Source: Coriobacteriia bacterium
GTDB taxonomy: Bacteria > Actinomycetota > Coriobacteriia > Coriobacteriales > Eggerthellaceae
Length of the DNA: 64,000 bases
NCBI GenBank assembly: GCA_030526515.1
Contig: JAUNCQ010000003.1
Coordinates: forward strand, 6,541-70,540
Reading direction: 5' to 3'
Shown: piece after piece, positions 13,632-51,484 of the stretch
Layout: every line of letters starts with the position of its first letter
Position numbering within the stretch: the first letter of the stretch is position 1
Position numbers and translations under genes: made by a program
Notes under the pieces: generated by a model
What the model was told of the DNA's origin: nothing
Databases searched by the model: none
What the model saw: the letters and a program-made list of their open reading frames with translations, nothing else

Positions 13632-15683
13632 CTAGGCCACGACCTTGGCCTTGCTGCTCAGGCCCCTCTTGGTCAGCCACTTCTTGTACGCGCTGGCCTT
13701 GGCGCCGGCGTGGACCGTCAGGGTGGAGGGGGTGTCGGCGAAGGTGTACTTGCCGGGCACGTTGGAGCTGGTCAGCTTCTGGGTGGTCAGGTTCAGCTCC
13801 TGCAGGGCCGCGCAACCGCGCAGCGCCTGGTCGCCAATGCCGCTGACGCCCGCGGGCAGGGTCAGCTTGGTCATGCGCTTGCAGCTGCGGAAGGCGCCTT
13901 CGCCCACCGTGGTCAGGGTGGCGGGCAGCTCCACGGTCTTCAGCTTCACGCAGCCTCGGTACACGTCCTTGCTCAGGTACGTGGCCTTGGCCGGCACCGG
14001 AACGCTGGTCAGGCGGTAGCAGTTGCGCAGGGCAGCCGTGCCCAGGTACTTCAGCTTGGGCAGCGCGGGCAGCTCCGTCAGGTACTGGCAGTTGTAGAAG
14101 GCGTAGCCGTACACGTGGGTCACGGCCTTGGCACCCTGGACCTTGGCCAGGTTCTTGCAGCCGGAAAACGCGCTGGCGCCCACGTACTTCACGTACTTGG
14201 GGATGGTCACGCTGGTCACGGTCGTGTTGCCCTTGAAGGCGTTGCGACGGATGTTAGTGACCTTGTGGGCCCTGCCGCCGCGGGTCACGGTGGCGGGAAT
14301 GACCACCTCGGCCGCCGTGGACTTGACGGAGTGCAGCTGGGCGGTGGTGGTGCTGGTGCTCATCCAGGTGAAGGTGGTCTTCTTGTCCTTGGACTTGGTG
14401 GTGTACAGGTTGTGACCGGTGTTGCTGCGGGTCAGCTGGATGGTGCAGCGCTTGGCGTTGTTGTAATAGGTGTAGGGCATGTGGTAGCGGTCGCTGTTGT
14501 GGGAGTTGATGATAGGCGTGCCGGCGCTGTCACGGCCCACGCACAGCACAGCGTGGTTCCACAGGGTGCCGACGCGATACAGCACCGGGCTGCCGGTGAA
14601 CACCTGGCTGGCCTTGGGGTTTTCGATGTACTTGCCGTACTCCTTGAAGTGGGTAACGAAGCTGGGGCAGTAGATCCAGGCCGTGGACACGCCGCTGCCC
14701 AGCTCGCCGTCAGTGTAGAACCAGGCCTTGGCGTCGGACGTGGAGCCCTTGACGTGCTTCATGCCGCCCGCGGAAATGGACTGGGACGTGAAGTTGGCGC
14801 AGTCGCCGCCCACGGGGTTGTAGTTCTTGTAGGCCTTGTTGTACTTGGACCAGTACTTGTTGGAATAGGCCACGGCGTCCGCAGGGCAGTAGGTGGCCTG
14901 GTACTTGGCGGTGGGGCTGGGCGAAGATGCCGGTCCCTCGTCGCCGACGCCTGCGGGGGACTCCTCACCAGTGTCGCCCGGGCTCGCCACGTCGCCAATG
15001 TTCAGGGCGCTCAGGCCACCGGCGGGCTGGTCGGCAGTCGGGTCGGTGGACACGCCGCACAGGTCCTGCTCGTCGAAGGAGTCCTGGGCGATCACAGGAG
15101 CCGGGCCGTCGGTGGCCAGGGTCAGGTCGTGGGAGGTGCCGAAGCGGGCGGTGTCGGAGCCGCCGACGCCGTCAGCCAGGTTGTCGTAGGTGAACACCAC
15201 CTGCTCGTAGGCCTGGACCTGCAGCTCGTCGCCCACGGCCTTGGCGCTGGTGACGGTCACATCGGTCTGCACGCCGGTGATGCGGATGTTGGCGCTCTCC
15301 TCCATTTCGGCAAAGCCATCAGCGCGCCCCTGCTGGGCGTCCGCCACCTGATCCTCAACCACATCCTGGTCAAGGTCGGTCTGGCCCATGACGGTCTGGC
15401 TGCGGTCCTGGAAGTAGTCCTCCAGCAGCTCCTGGACCGGCTGGTCCACTGCTGCCTGGGCCTTGGCGGCCACGTCAACGTCGGAGCTGGCGCCATCGGC
15501 CACGGGAGCCAGGGTGCCGTCAGCATCGGGAACGCCGGCTCCGGTGGGAGCGACGGCTTCAGTAGCGCTCGCGGCGCCCGCCTGGGGCTCCGCGGCAAAG
15601 GCGCTCAGGGCGCCCGCCGGCACCAGGCCGCAAGCCAAGGTCAGGCTCAGGGCGGTACGAATCACGTTCTTGGGGTTAATCAT
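13632..15683 (-). CDS. Secreted protein: putative amidase domain plus BspA-type leucine-rich repeats
   Basis: Signal peptide (MINPKNVIRTALSLTLACGLVPAGALSAFAAEP), the GGDCANFTSQSISAGG amidase-like motif, and C-terminal repeats of the type AFxGCxxLxxV. RBS GGAGGG precedes the ATG at 15683. Confidence 0.75.
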   Translation of the reverse strand: MINPKNVIRTALSLTLACGLVPAGALSAFAAEPQAGAASATEAVAPTGAGVPDADGTLAPVADGASSDVDVAAKAQAAVDQPVQELLEDYFQDRSQTVMGQTDLDQDVVEDQVADAQQGRADGFAEMEESANIRITGVQTDVTVTSAKAVGDELQVQAYEQVVFTYDNLADGVGGSDTARFGTSHDLTLATDGPAPVIAQDSFDEQDLCGVSTDPTADQPAGGLSALNIGDVASPGDTGEESPAGVGDEGPASSPSPTAKYQATYCPADAVAYSNKYWSKYNKAYKNYNPVGGDCANFTSQSISAGGMKHVKGSTSDAKAWFYTDGELGSGVSTAWIYCPSFVTHFKEYGKYIENPKASQVFTGSPVLYRVGTLWNHAVLCVGRDSAGTPIINSHNSDRYHMPYTYYNNAKRCTIQLTRSNTGHNLYTTKSKDKKTTFTWMSTSTTTAQLHSVKSTAAEVVIPATVTRGGRAHKVTNIRRNAFKGNTTVTSVTIPKYVKYVGASAFSGCKNLAKVQGAKAVTHVYGYAFYNCQYLTELPALPKLKYLGTAALRNCYRLTSVPVPAKATYLSKDVYRGCVKLKTVELPATLTTVGEGAFRSCKRMTKLTLPAGVSGIGDQALRGCAALQELNLTTQKLTSSNVPGKYTFADTPSTLTVHAGAKASAYKKWLTKRGLSSKAKVVA

Positions 15684-41593: not shown

Positions 41594-43522
41594 ATGAGCA
41601 CCACCGGCACGGGAAGCCTGATCCTGGGCACCGCTGGGCACATCGACCACGGCAAGTCGTCCCTGATCATGGCGCTGACCGGCACCGACCCGGACCGCCT
41701 GAAGGAGGAAAAGAAGCGCGGCATCACCATTGAGCTGGGCTTTGCGCAGCTGCTGCTGCCCAGCGGCCGCCACATGGGCGTGGTGGACGTGCCCGGCCAC
41801 GAGCGGTTCGTGCGCCAGATGGTGCAGGGCGCCACCGGCGTTGACGTGGCGCTGCTGGTCATTGCCGCGGACGACGGCGTCATGCCCCAGACCATCGAGC
41901 ACATGGCCGTGCTGGAACTGCTGGGCGTGCGCACTGCCGTGGTGGCGCTGACCAAGATCGACCTGATGGACGAGGAGTGGGTCGAGTTCATGGCGGACGA
42001 AGTGGCGGAGAAGCTGTCGGGGACCTGCTTTGCGGATGCGCCGGTGGTGCCGGTATCGTCCCGCACGGGAGCCGGCCTGGACGATCTGCGGGCCGCCCTG
42101 GACGCCGCGGCCGATGCCGCCGAGCGCACCAAGCCCGAAGGATCCATGCGCCTGCCGGTGGACCGCGTGTTCACCGTCAAGGGGTTCGGCACCGTCATCA
42201 CCGGCACCCTGTGGAGCGGCACCGTTGCCGTGGGCGACGAGCTGGAGGTTCTGCCCTCCGGCCTGCGGACCCGCGTGCGCTCCATCCAGGAGCACGGCGT
42301 TGACCAGGACGTGGCCTACGCCGGCAACCGCGTGGCCCTGAGCCTGAACGGCCTGACCACCGACGACGTGCGACCCGGCGACTTCCTGGCCGCGCCGGAG
42401 ACCATGGTGGCCTCCGACCGGTTCGACGCCAACCTGACCTACCAAGATCCGTTCCACAGCGGCAAGCCCTTCAAGACCGGCAGCCGCGTGCACGTGGCCC
42501 ACGGCACCCGCGAGGTCACCGGCCGCGTGCTGCTCATGAACGGGCGGGAGACCCTGGAGCCCGGCGCCACCGACCTGGTGCAGATCCGTCTGGACGAGCC
42601 TCTGGCCCTGAGCTATCAGGACCGGTTCATCCTGCGATCCTATTCGCCCGTGCGCGTCATTGCCGGCGGCAGCGTGGTCATGGCGCATCCGCGCAGGCGA
42701 ACGAACCTTTCGCCCGAAGAAGAGGCATTGCTGGCAGCCCTGAGGGACGGCCGGGTGCAGGAGGCGGTGGATGCCCACGTGGCGCTCATGGAGCTGCCCG
42801 AGCTTCCCGCCCAGGTGGCGGAGGCCGTGGGCTTGGACGCCGCGCTGGTGGAGCCGTGCCTGCAGGAGGCCATTGCCGGCAAGCGGCTGGCCTGGCTGGG
42901 ATCGGCCGGACGCTACCTGGTGCGGCCGGCGCTGGTGCAGAAGACGCTTTCCGCCATCGAGCGGGCGCTCATGGACTTCCATAGCAAGAATCCCGAGGCC
43001 ACGGGCATTGCCAAGGAGGCGCTGCGCCAGCGGGTGAACGACAAGCTGCCCAAGGACTGCTTCGACGCGCTGCTGGAGGAAGCCGCCGCCCGCGAGCAGG
43101 TGGTCCAGAACGGCGGCGAGGTCAGCCACCCCAAAGCCGGTGCCGGCGCCCGCGCCCTGGAGCAGAAGACGGCCCAGACCCTTGCGGCGCTGCTGGCCGA
43201 TGCCGCCGGTGCTCCCCCGCTGTTCGGCGAGCTGGCCGCCCAGGCAGGAGCCAGCCCCGACGTGGCCCGCAAGGCGCTGGCATCGCTGGTGGCCGACGGC
43301 CGCGTGGTCCGCGTGGAGCAGGAGCGCTACTACGACGCCGCCGTGATCGAACGGTACCGGAAGCTGATCCGCGGGCACCTGCGAGAGCACGGCAGCGCCA
43401 CCGCCGCGACCCTTAAGGATGTTTTGGGCACCACTCGCAAGTTCGCCATGCCGCTGCTGGAATATTTTGACGAGGAAGGCCTGACGCGACGCGACGGGGA
43501 CGAGCGATTGCTGGTAGAATAG
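41594..43522 (+). CDS. selB: Selenocysteine-specific translation elongation factor
   Basis: GTAGHIDHGKSSL, DVPGHERF and TKID G-motifs, EF-Tu-like domains II/III, and C-terminal winged-helix repeats. RBS AAGGAGGA. Confidence 0.9.
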   Translation: MSTTGTGSLILGTAGHIDHGKSSLIMALTGTDPDRLKEEKKRGITIELGFAQLLLPSGRHMGVVDVPGHERFVRQMVQGATGVDVALLVIAADDGVMPQTIEHMAVLELLGVRTAVVALTKIDLMDEEWVEFMADEVAEKLSGTCFADAPVVPVSSRTGAGLDDLRAALDAAADAAERTKPEGSMRLPVDRVFTVKGFGTVITGTLWSGTVAVGDELEVLPSGLRTRVRSIQEHGVDQDVAYAGNRVALSLNGLTTDDVRPGDFLAAPETMVASDRFDANLTYQDPFHSGKPFKTGSRVHVAHGTREVTGRVLLMNGRETLEPGATDLVQIRLDEPLALSYQDRFILRSYSPVRVIAGGSVVMAHPRRRTNLSPEEEALLAALRDGRVQEAVDAHVALMELPELPAQVAEAVGLDAALVEPCLQEAIAGKRLAWLGSAGRYLVRPALVQKTLSAIERALMDFHSKNPEATGIAKEALRQRVNDKLPKDCFDALLEEAAAREQVVQNGGEVSHPKAGAGARALEQKTAQTLAALLADAAGAPPLFGELAAQAGASPDVARKALASLVADGRVVRVEQERYYDAAVIERYRKLIRGHLREHGSATAATLKDVLGTTRKFAMPLLEYFDEEGLTRRDGDERLLVE

Positions 43523-43533
43523 CGTCCGCTCAT

Positions 43534-43630
43534 GGAGATGGATGGGCCCTGGTGGGTCCCGCGGCCTTCAAAGCCGTTGTGGGGCGCGCAGAACGTCTCG
43601 GATGTGTTCGATTCGCATGCATCTCCGCCA
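43534..43630 (+). tRNA. selC: tRNA-Sec (anticodon UCA)
   Basis: GGAGATG...CATCTCC-G-CCA acceptor stem. 6-bp D stem GGGCCC/GGGTCC with the 4-nt loop TGGT. Anticodon loop CTTCAAA. Long variable arm. T arm ATGTG-TTCGATT-CGCAT. CCA is encoded. The gene starts 11 nt after selB. Confidence 0.9.
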
Positions 43631-43639
43631 TATACGTAA

Positions 43640-43677
43640 CCGGCCCGCCAGGCATTGCCCGGCGGGCCGTTTTTTTG
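43640..43677 (+). terminator. Rho-independent terminator after selC
   Basis: Stem CGGCCCGCC / GGCGGGCCG followed by TTTTTTT. Confidence 0.85.
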
Positions 43678-43862
43678 CAGGTGTGAGCAGGGGTTTTGCG
43701 GGTGGCGGCGCTGGCGTGCGGGCCGCGGGTGCGGCGTGCGGCGCGCGAACGCCCCGCGGTCGCAGACCCCGGTGACGGCGGCGCGAGCGGCGCTTTCGCC
43801 CACTACTTCGCCGGCCGCTGCGCCGGCCAGCCCCACGGAAGGCGACGCCACCCCACACTCAC

Positions 43863-44132
43863 TGGCAGTTCCTCGACCTGTGGAGAAAGGCCCCCTCAGC
43901 GCACCTCCAAAATGGCAGTTCCCCGACCTGTGGAGCAACCCCTCCCGACCTCGCTGACAGTTCCACGACCTGTGGAGCAAAATCCCGCTGAAACCCCTCC
44001 ACAAGTCGTTGAAATGGCAGCGAAATCGCACTGATGCACCCGATCACCGGGTGACGGCGCTCCACAGGTCAGGGAACTGCCATCTGGGGCCCCTCCGACG
44101 ACCCCTCAACTCCACAGGTCGGGGAACTGCCA
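43863..44132. repeat. Cluster of six 23-bp repeats (3 direct, 3 inverted)
   Basis: TGGCAGTTCCNCGACCTGTGGAG at 43863, 43913 and 43955 (the last starts TGACAG). Its reverse complement CTCCACAGGTCNGGGAACTGCCA lies at 43997 (degenerate), 44060 and 44110. Spacing is 42-63 bp. Confidence 0.9.
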
Positions 44133-44303
44133 GCCGCGAGGGATGCCAGCCGCGGGGAACTGCCATCCGCATGGAGCACCATCCGCACGGCGCCAGCGGC
44201 CGAGGACGCCTCTGCCCGCACGGGCGCCAGCCGCGGGGGGATGCCATCCGCAGGAGCCACCCACTCGTCGTGCCGCCCGTGCGCCATGCCGCCCGCGCCC
44301 GCA

Positions 44304-45290
44304 TCAGCGCTCCTCCGCGGAAGCATCCCCCTCCGCACGCAGGCGCTTCGGCCGCACGCCGTCAAGCTGCTCCCACAGCTCATCCTGCCTGCGCCGAAAA
44401 TCCGCGCACCGGATCCGCAAAGACCGCCCCGAGCCGCAATACAGCGACTTCACCAGCGCCGACATCAGCTCCGGGCTTCTGAGCTGCGCATTCGTAAGCA
44501 CGTGAATGGGCACGCCCAAGGAGCTCAGCACCGTCCTGCGCGACGCGTCGTCATCATGCTGCTTCTTACCCAGATGCTCCTGATAGCTATCGTACTCGAC
44601 CCCGCATCCGAGCTTCGGAAAGTACAGGTCAACGCGACAATGCCCCTTCCCCAGCAGCTTCGCGCCGACCTCATCCAGCGGCACCTCATGGTTCAGCAAG
44701 ATGGGCGAAACACCCAGTCCCCCGTGCCGGTTCGGCAGACTCAGCTTCAAATACCCCCGCGATTCCTGCGGCGACGCCGCGCCCTCCCCCGCATATCGGG
44801 CGATCTCCCGCAGGCTCCGCACGTGCGGCGCCCCCTTCACTGCACCCAACGCATCCGCCAACGCGGCACGGCTGCTGAGCATCGGCTGGTCGTACCGCGC
44901 CTCATCGCCCAGCACCCTGTACGTCCCGAAGAACTCCCCCAGCAACAGCAGCCGTTGGCCAAAATCCAGACCCGCAGCATTCTGCGCAAGGCACAGCTCC
45001 GGGCAAACCACCCAGACACCAGGCAGCCACGTCTTCCGAACCAGCCCCTCAAGAGCATGCCGCCAAACGCGGCCGTTCAACGACCCATTCCGCGCCCGAG
45101 GCCCATCGCCGCTGATCAGCACATCGAACGGTCGCTCGATTCCCAGCAGGTCAAGAGCCCGCAAGGCATTTTCATCCACCTGAGCCCGGTCCGGCGCATG
45201 GCGCACGTCGGCCAAGGCAAGCCGATCAGGCTGCCCTTCGAACCGACGCCACCAGGCCAGCGCGCTGCTATGAGACAAGACAATCGCCAT
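44304..45290 (-). CDS. DUF559/Vsr-like endonuclease-fold protein, paralogue A
   Basis: The C-terminal ...HCRVDLYFPKLGCGVEYDSYQEHLGKKQHDDDASRRTVLSSLGVPIHVLT matches the DUF559 D...E-x-D...H...D..R...L..G pattern. It is a paralogue of 49857..50879. Confidence 0.65.
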   Translation of the reverse strand: MAIVLSHSSALAWWRRFEGQPDRLALADVRHAPDRAQVDENALRALDLLGIERPFDVLISGDGPRARNGSLNGRVWRHALEGLVRKTWLPGVWVVCPELCLAQNAAGLDFGQRLLLLGEFFGTYRVLGDEARYDQPMLSSRAALADALGAVKGAPHVRSLREIARYAGEGAASPQESRGYLKLSLPNRHGGLGVSPILLNHEVPLDEVGAKLLGKGHCRVDLYFPKLGCGVEYDSYQEHLGKKQHDDDASRRTVLSSLGVPIHVLTNAQLRSPELMSALVKSLYCGSGRSLRIRCADFRRRQDELWEQLDGVRPKRLRAEGDASAEER

Positions 45291-45479
45291 GCCTCCAGCC
45301 TACCGCACGGACCTTCGCGGAATCTTCCGCGTTTTCCCAACGCATTCCCAATGAAAAGGAGCCGGCAAACTGCACGGCTCCAGGTCTTTTGGGCGAAAAA
45401 TATGTCGAAGCGTAGACGGCGGCACGGGCGCTCGGCCACGCGGTCAGCACGGCGCGAGCGGCGCTTTCGCCCGCCGACG

Positions 45480-46097
45480 CTAAAGGTCCAGCTCCTGGCC
45501 GGGTTCCAGGATGATGCGGCCCTCCACATCGAACTGCTCGGCGGTGCTGCGGTCGAAGATCACCGCGTCGTTCACATCGTGAACCGGCACCAGGTGCACC
45601 GGGATGGTGTGGCGCGCGCCGATGAGCCGGGCGCACTCGCTGGCCTCGGCGGGGCCCATGTTGTAGAAGCCGTCGCCGGGCAGGGCCGCGTAGTCCAGGT
45701 TCATCTTGGCCAGCAGGCCGTTGCGCATGAAGTCGGTGGTCGAGGTGTCGCCGGACGCGTAGAACTTCACGCCGTCGAACTCCAGCACCACGCCCACGCA
45801 CTCCTCCACCGGATGGTTGTCGTTGCAGGCGGGCACGGCGCGCATGCTCACGCCGCGGCGGCTGAACGTCTGGTACGCGCCGGCGATGGGCTGGAAGTCC
45901 CGCGCCCGCAGAATCAGGCAGTCGTCGGCCTTGGGCACGCGGTCCAGCATGGTGTGGTCCGGATGCTCGTGGGTGACCAGGATAAAGTCGGCAGGGCGGT
46001 CGTAGCCTTCGCCCGCAAACGGGTCCACGTAGATCACGCGGCCGTTGCGCAGCGTGAACCTATAACTTCCGTGTCCTTGATACAGCATGCGTGCCAT
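45480..46097 (-). CDS. MBL-fold metallo-hydrolase
   Basis: The ILVTHEHPDH motif is present. RBS GAAGGAGGA. Confidence 0.8.
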   Translation of the reverse strand: MARMLYQGHGSYRFTLRNGRVIYVDPFAGEGYDRPADFILVTHEHPDHTMLDRVPKADDCLILRARDFQPIAGAYQTFSRRGVSMRAVPACNDNHPVEECVGVVLEFDGVKFYASGDTSTTDFMRNGLLAKMNLDYAALPGDGFYNMGPAEASECARLIGARHTIPVHLVPVHDVNDAVIFDRSTAEQFDVEGRIILEPGQELDL

Positions 46098-49856: not shown

Positions 49857-50879
49857 ATGGCTATCATCCTGTCACATAGCAGCGCCCTTGCGTGGTGGCG
49901 CAACTTCACGGGAAACCCCGACGACCTCCCCGTCGCCGACGTCCGCCGCGCCCTCAACCGCTCCGAAGCCGACCGAAGCGTCGTGGCGTCGCTTGATCGA
50001 CAGGGGCTGCCCCGACCTTTTCAGGTCCTGGTGGAAAGCCGCGGGTCCAAGCTTCGGTCCAGCACCTTCTGGGGCCACAGCACCGACAAGCCGCTGAGCG
50101 GGCTGATCAGGCAGACGGACCTTCCCCAAGTGTTCGTGGTCTGCCCCGAGCTTTGCCTGATGCAGAATGCCACGGGGCTGGATTTCGCCCAACTCATTGA
50201 GCTGGTCTGCGAGTTCCTGGGCGAATACCGCATTATCAGCGAAGACGAGACCCGCTACGACCAACCTCGGCTGTGCAGCAAGGAATCGATCGCCTACGTG
50301 CTTCCCCTTGCCAAGGGAATTCACGGCTCCAATCGAATCCGCGCCGTGCTCAAGCACGCAGAGGAGGGGTCGGCGTCACCTCAGGAAACGCGCTCCTTCC
50401 TCAAGCTGTCGCTCCCCAACAGCCGCGGGGGCCTGAGCGTTTCCCGCATCCTGATGAACCACCCGATTCCCCTTGACCGCAAGAACGCGAAGCTCCTTGG
50501 GAAGGACCATTGCCGCATCGACCTCTACCTGCCCGACCTCAACAGGGGCATCGAGTACGACAGCTACCAGGAACATCTGGGCAAGGCAAGGCACGACGAC
50601 GATGCCATGCGCAGAACGGTCCTCGAGTCGCTGGGCATTCCCGTCAGCGTGCTCACCCATGCACAGACGCAGAGCCCCGAGCTCATGGAAGCGCTGGTCA
50701 AGTCTCTCTACCATGGCACCGGGCGGGTGCTGCGCATTCGTTGCAAGGGGTTCCGCGAAAAGCAGGACAAGCTTTGGAAGCAGCTCGACGGCAAGAAGCC
50801 CCAGCGTCTTTCCGCGGAGGAGGAGTCGTCGGACGAGCTGCAGGTGCCGCTCGAGGTCTACGACACGTGGGCGCCTTAG
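49857..50879 (+). CDS. DUF559/Vsr-like endonuclease-fold protein, paralogue B
   Basis: MAIILSHSSALAWWR... compares with MAIVLSHSSALAWWR... in paralogue A. The two are collinear over the full length and, by eye, identical at more than half of positions. No clear RBS. Confidence 0.6.
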   Translation: MAIILSHSSALAWWRNFTGNPDDLPVADVRRALNRSEADRSVVASLDRQGLPRPFQVLVESRGSKLRSSTFWGHSTDKPLSGLIRQTDLPQVFVVCPELCLMQNATGLDFAQLIELVCEFLGEYRIISEDETRYDQPRLCSKESIAYVLPLAKGIHGSNRIRAVLKHAEEGSASPQETRSFLKLSLPNSRGGLSVSRILMNHPIPLDRKNAKLLGKDHCRIDLYLPDLNRGIEYDSYQEHLGKARHDDDAMRRTVLESLGIPVSVLTHAQTQSPELMEALVKSLYHGTGRVLRIRCKGFREKQDKLWKQLDGKKPQRLSAEEESSDELQVPLEVYDTWAP

Positions 50880-51014
50880 CGTATCGCGCCCCGCGCCTCC
50901 AGCCGCACTTCGCTGCCAACCGCGCACCGCGCGCCACGCCTCTCACTACCAACCGCGGCCCGCTATGCCAACCGTGCCTCCCAAGGCGAACCGCGCCCCG
51001 CGCTGCCAACCGTC

Positions 51015-51232
51015 AAAGAATCGGTAGCGAGTCGGCTTCCGCTCGACGGATTATGCAAAACTGGTAGACTCCGGCGCCCGGCAAGGGTCCTGTTTGCCCA
51101 CGTCGCTGACAATTCCTGGATTATTTACACCCATTCTTCCCTGGATGGCATCAAGTCAAAGAAGCCGCGCCCACGAACCTACCAGTTTCCATCTTTTCGC
51201 CCGGCAGAAGCGCCGGCGCTACCGATTCTTGC
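51015..51232. repeat. Nested-inverted-repeat intergenic element, copy 3
   Basis: AATCGGTAGCGAGTCGGCTT...CGACGGATTATGCAAAACTGGTAG ... core ATTATTTACACCCATTCTTCC ... CCTACCAGTTT ... GCTACCGATTC. Confidence 0.8.
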
Positions 51233-51484
51233 CGCGTTGGCATGGCCCCGAGCCCGGCTCAGCCGCACGCCCTGCGCCTCCCGCCCGCGCACCCCGGCCC
51301 CTCAGCGGCAGCGCACTCCCCGCCCGCGCCACCCCGCGCACGCCCGCGCGCCACCCGCACGCCACCCTGCGGTGTGCGCTTTTCCCGCAGTTTCTCGTTT
51401 CCCCGCCCCGCGCCCCCGCAAGCACGATAAAATCACTCCAAAGGCGAAAATCCCGCCTGCCACCCTCCACGAAAGGAGACTCTC

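Follow-up and report, generated by a model that had tools for sequence, protein, structure and literature searches.

Converging 23-bp repeats downstream of tRNA-Sec: a putative binding-site array in a gene-plus-repeat cassette of Coriobacteriia

Six 23-bp repeats, located between a tRNA-Sec gene and a gene for a predicted Vsr-like nuclease (W1), probably constitute the cis-acting module of a gene-plus-repeat cassette, that is, a putative binding-site array for the protein encoded by the adjacent gene, in a selfish nuclease-and-repeat system. They lie in a 64-kb stretch of DNA, referred to here as the window, which judging by SelB homologs comes from an uncultured member of the Eggerthellaceae (Coriobacteriia). 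In the original prediction, the array was likened to multiple recombinase- or transposase-binding sites at the two ends of an element, and its adjacency to a ‘DUF559-like’ gene was pointed out. Both views have gained support: the repeats are most likely protein-binding sites arranged in the manner of paired element ends, and this gene is their relevant partner. As a more tentative proposal, the family to which W1 belongs may represent an undescribed class of selfish DNA, in which Coriobacteriia-wide nucleases, with a novel N-terminal DNA-recognition domain and a Vsr-like PD-(D/E)XK domain, recognize, maintain and occasionally copy or move their own lineage-specific inverted-repeat modules, whether these are gene-linked or solo. 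Such a class would be the functional counterpart of RAYT-REPIN systems or of pairs of transposase and MITE. The main rival to the cassette explanation is a non-mobile role of the repeats as operators or parts of a regulon.

The repeat array between tRNA-Sec and W1

When the window was scanned with TGGCAGTTCCNCGACCTGTGGAG and up to three mismatches were allowed, five matches with 0-1 mismatch apiece were obtained, while 100 dinucleotide-preserving shuffles gave none, and no copies are expected by chance. These five are the strong ones among the six repeats (three direct, three inverted) of the original prediction; the remaining copy 4 is degenerate, with four mismatches. It nonetheless occupies the position predicted by symmetry and reaches 33 bits on a position matrix in whose construction it was included, and outside the array no position-matrix score in the window exceeds 13 bits. 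The whole set at 43863-44165 thus consists of five near-exact 23-bp copies, one degenerate copy and one 13-bp half-copy (44153-44165), the last being situated to the right of the array, within a run of decayed partial copies that separates the array from the W1 stop codon (Table 1).

Table 1. Coordinates of the repeat arrays, the two nuclease-family genes and their surroundings in the window
Feature	Position	Strand	Basis
tRNA-Sec, anticodon TCA; neighbor, outside the element	43534..43630	+	ARAGORN; Rfam RF01852, 66.6 bits
Hairpin followed by T-run, likely tRNA-Sec terminator	43638..43672	+	inverted repeat; same hairpin in L003 and L005
Left copy of perfect 23-bp direct repeat CGGCGCGAGCGGCGCTTTCGCCC; imperfect extension back to 43770	43779..43801	.	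repeat finding
Repeat copy 1, TGGCAGTTCCTCGACCTGTGGAG	43863..43885	+	motif scan, 0 mismatches
Repeat copy 2	43913..43935	+	motif scan, 0 mismatches
Repeat copy 3	43955..43977	+	motif scan, 1 mismatch
Repeat copy 4, degenerate, TGCCATTTCAACGACTTGTGGAG, 4 mismatches	43997..44019	-	repeat finding and position matrix
Repeat copy 5	44060..44082	-	motif scan, 1 mismatch
Repeat copy 6	44110..44132	-	motif scan, 0 mismatches
Decayed 17-33-bp partial copies of the TGGCA-bearing end (‘head’) of the repeat, GGGAACTGCCAKCCGC	44120..44254	-	repeat finding
W1 gene, 328 aa, predicted Vsr-like PD-(D/E)XK C-terminal domain	44304..45290	-	ORF, alignment, AlphaFold2, Foldseek
W1 upstream region, presumed promoter and 5' UTR	45291..45449 (159 bp)	-	blastn against W2 upstream
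Right copy of 23-bp direct repeat, 7 bp before the stop codon of the MBL-fold gene	45450..45472	.	repeat finding
W2 gene (P0122), 340 aa, 58% identity to W1	49857..50879	+	homology
W2 partial repeats: five, 19-bp period, TGCCA-bearing end of the motif (TGCCAACCGYG), just after stop codon	50910..51013	+	repeat finding
W2 converging 2+2 module: TGCCAACCGTCAAAGAATCGGTAGCG, AAACTGGTAGAC and reverse complements	51004..51242	.	inverted-repeat finding

Three copies run forward and three in reverse in a dyad layout, with start-to-start spacings of 50, 42, 42, 63 and 50 bp, which agree with the 42-63 bp given originally and place the sites about five helical turns apart. The outer two pairs of copies have a common dyad center at 43997.5, and the inner pair is centered at 43987, with an offset of 10.5 bp. 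The outermost copies (43862-43885 and 44110-44133) are 96% complementary over 24 nt, and the ends of the array read TG...CA (TGGCAG...CTGCCA). Its first copy starts 232 bp downstream of tRNA-Sec as located by ARAGORN and Rfam, much as had been stated (about 230 bp), and the array sits between two convergent transcription units, tRNA-Sec and W1. The claim that no ORF explains the repeats also holds: the ORFs overlapping the array have neither a Pfam match nor the GC1/GC2/GC3 pattern of the real genes in the window (about 0.70/0.45/0.90), and because half of the copies are inverted, no single reading frame can explain both halves. An iteron-type origin, which had been named as another reading, was rejected, as the copies are 42-63 bp apart instead of forming a ~22-bp tandem, half of them are inverted, and no rep gene is present.

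A single strand of the array region folds as one long interrupted hairpin (dG -87 kcal/mol, z = -12 versus shuffles), and modules of two arms with an 80-130-nt spacer are frequent in the family. The repeats might therefore act through their fold, either as a structured RNA of the guide-like or bridge-like kind or as an ssDNA hairpin or cruciform serving as the substrate of structure-specific cleavage, a reading also favored by the best, although non-significant, whole-chain PDB matches of the W1 protein in Foldseek, which are RAP-domain RNA-binding proteins. This reading is highly improbable, however, because three stems of the same sequence are not required by a fold and the would-be hairpin partners differ without compensation (copies 1 and 6 at position 11, copies 2 and 5 at position 12, copies 3 and 4 at five positions). 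In addition, tRNA-Sec is the sole Rfam match at 43400-45600 with E <= 1, leaving the array without any, and no convincing promoter was found, the one weak consensus match lying inside copy 3. That all six copies have one common sequence while their differences are non-compensatory fits recognition by a protein better than a folded strand.

The cassette, its boundaries and its paralog

The array belongs to a cassette of about 1.65 kb (43802-45449), which contains, besides the array, the decayed partial repeats, the W1 gene and 159 bp of W1 upstream sequence, and which is enclosed by a direct repeat. The two copies of the latter (43770-43801 and 45441-45472; spacing 1671 bp) are identical at 28 of 32 nt (88%), the last 23 nt being exact. 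The left copy, 61 bp from the array at the left cassette boundary, runs on from inferred-native sequence 3' of the tRNA, and the right copy runs into native sequence preceding the MBL stop codon; the hairpin of the likely tRNA-Sec terminator is kept in relatives and thus counts as native sequence.

Contigs from three related species, chosen through SelB homologs (L002/L003, L004 and L005; SelB 84-86% identical), have the same gene order, selA-selB-tRNA-Sec-MBL-ABC-F-MFS, and both the W1 gene and the array are absent from the selB/tRNA-Sec/MBL locus in all of them. The tRNA terminator is separated from the MBL gene by 55-150 bp in these relatives, as opposed to about 1.85 kb in the window, and the reconstructed empty site reads …CGGTGACGG-CGGCGCGAGCGGCGCTTTCGCCC-GCCGACG…. 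It appears from this comparison that the cassette has been inserted, or at least is variably present, between tRNA-Sec and the MBL-fold gene; with empty sites from different species, deletion between the direct repeats and gain by insertion cannot be distinguished. The pyrK locus of L006 was considered as a second empty site, where the contig of an 87% relative ends within the repeat module and a 75% relative differs in synteny.

The genes identified at 40-53 kb are selA, selB, W1, MBL, ABC-F, MFS, W2 and Band_7, with no transposase or integrase among them. Terminal inverted repeats were not found at the insertion boundaries, the array being near one boundary only, and we know of no transposase for which a 23-bp duplication would be typical. 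Because selC is a classic integration hotspot and direct repeats flank the inserted segment, the array could be taken as the remnant of a genomic island at tRNA-Sec, namely arm-type integrase sites of a former attL or attR that outlasted deletion of the island. Such an origin is hardly credible. Unlike the repeats of a tRNA-targeting integrative island, the direct repeat at 43779-43801 is clear of the tRNA 3' end, starting 148 bp beyond the end of the gene (43630) without overlap and with the terminator and about 105 bp of inferred-native sequence in between; moreover, no integrase gene or fragment was seen, and homologous units of gene and array sit in many contexts without tRNA. The tRNA as an integration hotspot, to which weight had originally been given, is therefore probably incidental.

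A paralog of W1, W2, is encoded in the same window, 4.5 kb away across the conserved MBL/ABC-F/MFS block. The order at W2 is that at W1, with the gene and its stop codon followed by partial repeats and a converging array, and the motif is different. The homology of W1 and W2 also extends about 44 bp upstream of the genes, as blastn gives 76% identity over 88 bp spanning the start codon. At the W2 site, such a gene survives in the relatives L002/L003 as no more than a decayed 3' remnant, which suggests that W1/W2-type genes have been gained, lost and eroded between species, on the timescale of species divergence. Both genes are lower in GC3 than host genes, and this, together with ortholog evolution that is faster than that of flanking genes, fits an accessory or selfish element. 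Around W2, too, there is a direct repeat, of 15 bp (49842 / 51372), but it was not accepted as a boundary, since its left copy lies within the sequence homologous to the W1 upstream region.

The motif of the W1 array can be written as TGRCAGTTCCNNGACCTGTGGAG. In exact and degenerate form, the motif had no match in the genome contigs (185,579 species-representative genomes) or the IMG/VR viral contigs, and its only match in JGI metagenomes was a chance one (L001), within a low-GC coding region; likewise, the array had no blastn match in PLSDB. Neither a full-length element carrying the motif nor a copy of the W1 motif outside its array was found in the window or in any collection searched. The exact motif is unique to its locus in every collection searched, but the segment around it is absent from relatives and not conserved in them.

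These searches bear on the possibility of an orphan MITE, or of a conventional transposon (Tn7-, Mu-, Tn5053- or IS21-like) reduced to its joined ends, whose transposase would be encoded elsewhere and which would lie next to the nuclease gene by chance. The TG...CA ends, the terminal inverted repeats and the lack of coding capacity of the array would all be expected of such a structure, and 3+3 sites at about 50 bp spacing recall the ends of Mu and Tn7. Nevertheless, this reading is very unlikely. The 270-bp array has no target-site duplication of 2-10 bp, its flanks being ACTCAC and GCCGCG; neither another copy of the motif nor a full-length element is present in the window or the collections, and the genes identified at 40-53 kb offer no transposase or integrase. 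Gene and array are also paired at the paralog and at dozens of homologous loci, where motif and gene diverge together; adjacency by chance does not account for this. Of the MITE-like character ascribed to the array by the original prediction, what stands is the existence of solo equivalents in Collinsella; the W1 array itself is not an orphan remnant, but a conserved part of a gene-plus-array cassette.

The W1 protein and the repeats of its family

An alignment of W1 with nine homologs revealed invariant residues, S173-P-x-E176, D221, E232-Y-D-S235 and H239, which form a constellation of the Vsr/PD-(D/E)XK type and include residues of catalytic type. In the AlphaFold2 model of W1 (pLDDT 88, pTM 0.86), the C-terminus superposes on the catalytic domain of I-Bth0305I (3r3p) with a TM of 0.64 (target-normalized) and an rmsd of 3.3 A over 94 columns. 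With Foldseek, nothing in the PDB matched the whole chain at E < 0.09, and local matches of the C-terminal domain, all with weak E-values, were to TnsA (PDB 1f1z and 1t0f; E 0.16-0.23, non-significant), the I-Bth0305I catalytic domain and Vsr (1cw0); among viral models (BFVD), the C-terminus matched Vsr, DUF559 and phage homing endonucleases, with a best E of 2e-4. The N-terminal ~165 aa, by contrast, matched no known family in sequence, profile or structure searches.

Like the DUF559, MTES_1575 and Vsr families, W1 has a D...E-x-D...H motif, a predicted alpha-beta-beta-beta-alpha-beta core and, at residues ~217-265, weak profile matches (MTES_1575, DUF559 and DUF2726, all sub-threshold); unlike them, it scores far under the cut-offs, and no described family is related to its N-terminal two thirds. 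Against MTES_1575 it reaches 15.7 bits, the gathering cut-off being 38.2, and in the Pfam test for DUF559 it has no match, the sole family member to pass being the distant homolog P0130 (27.8 versus 20.6). Apart from a weak Vsr-like signal, Pfam, NCBIfam, PADLOC, PHROGs and PDB sequences give no assignment. Accordingly, of the ‘DUF559-like nuclease fold’ reported initially, Vsr-like residues and a Vsr-like fold are retained, as residues and model predict, yet the protein is below the Pfam gathering cut-offs and is not a formal member of DUF559/MTES_1575 (PF04480, PF18741).

When 1.84 billion cluster representatives were searched with a profile, at least 2,851 clusters (50% identity) scored at E < 1e-30, and in nearly all of these the match was full-length, at about 320 aa. 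Gut Coriobacteriia such as Eggerthella, Adlercreutzia, Slackia, Collinsella and Olsenella commonly have members of the family, those of Collinsella being labelled ‘hypothetical protein’ in RefSeq; no phage homologs of W1 were found by tblastn. Judging by these searches, the family is large, unannotated and almost confined to Coriobacteriia. No prior description of it, or of its association with repeats (DUF559 with inverted repeats), was found in the literature. A gene with a cognate population of inverted repeats is a known type of arrangement.

A degenerate-pattern scan with one genome per species yielded 57 homologous loci, nearly all from Coriobacteriia, with several genomes giving more than one. 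Self-comparison of their flanks revealed inverted-repeat modules, their arms 20-50 bp and their spacers 60-180 bp long, which are placed upstream of the gene, downstream of it or on both sides, position and site orientation varying by locus. At least one inverted pair occurs in 48 of the 57 loci and three or more copies in 23, while at strict thresholds modules are missing in about half of the family loci. Their density is 0.39 per kb at up to 700 bp from the gene versus 0.023 per kb beyond, although the distal control, being mostly coding, is an imperfect one. With up to three mismatches allowed, an 18-mer occurring four or more times, with copies on both strands, was present in 13 of 57 real flanks, and in none of 55 dinucleotide-shuffled flanks or 32 distal stretches.

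Arrays comparable to that of W1 exist at several of these loci. In Ellagibacter (L015 and L022), five or six 25-bp sites, ATGGCRNCCTGTGACGGTTTTGCAA, run forward and then in reverse at a spacing of 51-52 bp on both sides of the gene; a site spacing of 50-51 bp is also seen at L061 and L065, and L038 has two flanking modules of 140 bp that are 91% identical and in inverted orientation. A motif core is common to related loci, namely L015/L022 (73% protein identity), L062/L068 (75%) and L020/L023/L025 (55-60%), and within-genome paralogs, with 32-58% identity, have different motifs. Orthologous loci are syntenic, and their genes and arrays diverge faster than the flanks, as between L015 and L022, where the gene is 74% and the flanks are 90% identical. 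Consistent target-site duplications were found neither at the W1 array nor at ten homologous loci nor at solo modules in Collinsella. Copy 4 of the W1 array resembles the motif of the homologous locus L006. A TGGCA/TGCCA start is seen in many loci and is given here purely as an observation, since k-mer enrichment for a universal ‘TGGCA head’ was swamped by the difference in composition between coding and non-coding sequence.

Modules without a gene were encountered in Collinsella aerofaciens. The sole PLSDB match for the protein is a 900-kb C. aerofaciens record, NZ_OY725717.1, which is labelled a plasmid and is evidently a piece of chromosome. In the 705 kb of it that were searched, genes by means of the family profile and modules by BLAST, there are two paralogs, each with an inverted-repeat module 13-30 bp after its stop codon. 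A further copy of the first module type is found at 720.03-720.26 kb, between ABC transporter and DAHP synthase genes, and another at 616.5/620.5 kb, where it is split by a copy of IS256 that is itself interrupted by IS21; the second type recurs at 220.56-220.80 kb. Solo modules are thus found at two loci for one type and at least one for the other, and no family gene is near those at 720.0, 616.5/620.5 and 220.6 kb. Conservation (80-90%) is limited to the ~50-bp arms, the spacers being unalignable, and no target-site duplication is evident at these modules.

Arm-only conservation of this kind suggests selection on binding sites, and it is among the points that suit an operator or regulon role, in which the protein would be mainly a sequence-specific regulator or a self-controlled nuclease, the modules would be operators, and nothing would move. 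Gene-linked modules would then control the nuclease gene or insulate its neighbors, and solo modules would control other genes, as the one upstream of the DAHP synthase gene might do. In one subfamily (L010, L020, L023, L025, L026 and L031), moreover, 17-30 bp separate the end of the module from the start codon downstream of it, a layout expected of an operator-promoter, and the synteny of orthologs is in keeping with a stationary function. We nevertheless consider this role rather unlikely. The W1 array lies 3' of a stop codon between convergent units, where there is no promoter to control; gene and array as a unit vary in presence and have a perfect 23-bp direct repeat at their borders; the invariant nuclease residues argue for catalysis; and a regulator family with targets in the host would not usually have a private motif for each paralog.

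Proposed action and likeness to known systems

In the preferred explanation, that of a selfish nuclease-and-repeat system, we infer that W1 acts by binding and cleavage, with mobility as a possible outcome. The N-terminal domain of the W1 family may be its sequence-specific DNA-binding part, through which several W1 molecules would bind the 23-bp sites, about five helical turns apart and in dyad layout. Such binding would assemble a paired nucleoprotein complex, and the nuclease would act on or beside the module, an action that could serve the maintenance, copying or movement of module and gene. The helical phasing of the sites and the change of motifs with the protein fit recognition by the encoded protein, presumably via the N-terminal domain, while the insertion polymorphism with its perfect 23-bp direct repeat, the lower GC3 of W1 and W2, the erosion in relatives, the private paralogs and the solo modules are evidence for an accessory or selfish element. 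As within-genome paralogs are old (32-58% identity) and orthologs are syntenic, movement, if any, would be rare; to our knowledge, the Vsr-like PD-(D/E)XK class of enzymes does not mobilize DNA alone.

If this reading were right, it would open a first way to the function of a very large protein family without annotation, and would provide a second, enzymatically unrelated case of a gene co-evolving with its own inverted-repeat doublets, which would bear on the persistence of repeat systems in bacterial genomes. In addition, with a long private motif (23-50 bp) apparently paired with each paralog, the family could amount to a natural library in which recognition domains of programmable appearance are fused to a nuclease. 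The modules would also be of practical interest, as they break metagenome assemblies and cause presence/absence differences between close species.

Several subterminal transposase-binding sites are a feature of Tn7, Mu, Tn5053, IS21 and CACTA/En-Spm elements, and MITEs have been derived from them. The W1 array is like the ends of the Tn7, Mu and IS21 type in that several sites of the same sequence, ~22 bp long, are forward on one side and reverse on the other, spaced by tens of bp and with TG...CA outermost; as with the MITEs derived from such elements, non-coding solo versions exist. It differs from them in that the cassette has no DDE (rve) transposase, judging by the genes identified at 40-53 kb, and no short target-site duplication, that the full converging array stands to one side of the gene, or complete arrays stand to both, instead of half at each end, and that near-identical copies within a genome are lacking. 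TnsA of Tn7 offers a further parallel, since it is a PD-(D/E)XK nuclease in a mobile element with multi-site ends, although its match to W1 is local, weak and non-significant, and TnsB/C/D, which TnsA needs, are missing here.

I-Bth0305I, the prototype of the EDxHD/Vsr-like homing endonucleases, is homodimeric, and its footprint covers about 60 bp (Taylor et al. 2011, PMC3239194). W1 resembles it as a multidomain protein, in which a predicted C-terminal Vsr-like catalytic domain would be joined to an N-terminal DNA-recognition part, and as the product of a selfish-looking, variably present gene. Unlike that of I-Bth0305I, the gene of W1 is intergenic and chromosomal in Coriobacteriia, associated with neither intron nor intein and not of phage, and the sequence similarity is below Pfam cut-offs. 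We know of no homing endonuclease that keeps an array of sites beside its own gene.

A further parallel is offered by REPIN-RAYT systems, in which REP doublets accompany REP-associated tyrosine transposases (Bertels & Rainey 2011, PMC3116915; PMC3337134; PMC5581495). In both cases, genomes have one or a few copies of a gene that is bordered by its short cognate repeat in inverted doublets, the repeat type differs from paralog to paralog, gene-free copies of the doublet occur elsewhere in the genome (here in Collinsella), and inheritance is mostly vertical with fast sequence evolution. The proteins are different, W1 being a predicted Vsr-like PD-(D/E)XK nuclease with an unmatched N-terminus instead of an IS200-like Y1/HUH transposase, with no match to Y1_Tnp (IS200/IS605-like). 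The W1-family sites are also longer, at 23-50 bp versus about 20 bp, and can form multi-site arrays with a 50-bp period. Finally, they are far fewer: one array in the 64-kb window and 1-3 copies per 0.7 Mb in Collinsella, compared with tens to hundreds for REPINs.

W2 and the history of the second site

W2, the paralog of W1, is 58% identical to it and is accompanied by a repeat module of its own. A conserved MBL/ABC-F/MFS block sits between the two genes, which are oppositely oriented. In a related species with the matching selB/tRNA-Sec/MBL gene order (L003, also L002), MFS and Band_7 flank what is left of the 3' end of a W-type gene; this remnant is decayed (…RRQDELWEQLDGMRP…) and is followed by a small palindrome. 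The second site was thus ancestrally occupied by a W-type gene that has since been eroded.

The GC3 of W1 and W2 is 0.77 and 0.82, respectively, versus 0.89-0.95 for selA, selB, MBL and ABC-F. The lower values point to codon usage that is less well adapted in the two genes, or to their having come from a foreign source.

Features and their coordinates
Feature	Location	Description
W2 with its repeat module	window 49857-51242	second family member, 340 aa; module downstream of gene
W2 gene	window 49857-50879
W1 gene	window 44304-45290
W1 direct repeat, left copy	window 43779-43801	contains GGCGCTTTC
Solo module, left flank	NZ_OY725717.1 ~720013-720021	contains GGCGCTTTC
Split solo module	NZ_OY725717.1 616485-620513 (L084)	IS256, itself interrupted by IS21
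'Vsr' gene	NZ_OY725717.1 730145-731134 (L082)	329-aa product
W-type remnant	L003 ~14340-14500
W-type remnant	L002 ~14214-14245
Palindromes around P0130	L011 400-2050	~13 copies
Spacer palindromes	L026 215-258; L028 2431-2491
Broken module	L069 1-125	contig end

Solo modules in Collinsella

PLSDB lists NZ_OY725717.1 (L073-L087) as 'plasmid 6' of Collinsella aerofaciens TSDC17.2-1.1. The record contains recA, ftsK, rpoB/C and operons for ribosomal proteins, and is a piece of chromosome rather than a plasmid. In one of its solo modules, located away from family genes, a copy of IS256 that is in turn interrupted by an IS21 element has separated the two arms, which are now 4 kb apart. GGCGCTTTC, found in the left flank of another and within the perfect 23-bp direct repeat bounding W1 and its array, could reflect coincidence or target preference. 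The same record encodes a protein that bears the annotation 'DNA mismatch endonuclease Vsr' and is roughly double a typical Vsr in length; the family profile gave no match to it.

Other repeat styles, outliers and contig ends

Perfect palindromes, ATAAGGTCCGACCTTAT, surround P0130, a distant homolog and the only one exceeding the DUF559 threshold, and differ in repeat style from the 23-bp arrays. In two termite-gut Coriobacteriia loci, additional TTGCATATGCAAC-based palindromes lie within the upstream-module spacer and may represent a second operator.

Family loci also occur in bins labelled Bacteroidaceae (L043) and Subdoligranulum (L054), non-Coriobacteriia placements that may result from mis-binning or horizontal transfer. 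Inverted-repeat modules appear to break short-read assemblies; one 65-kb metagenome contig terminates exactly within such a module adjoining pyrK.
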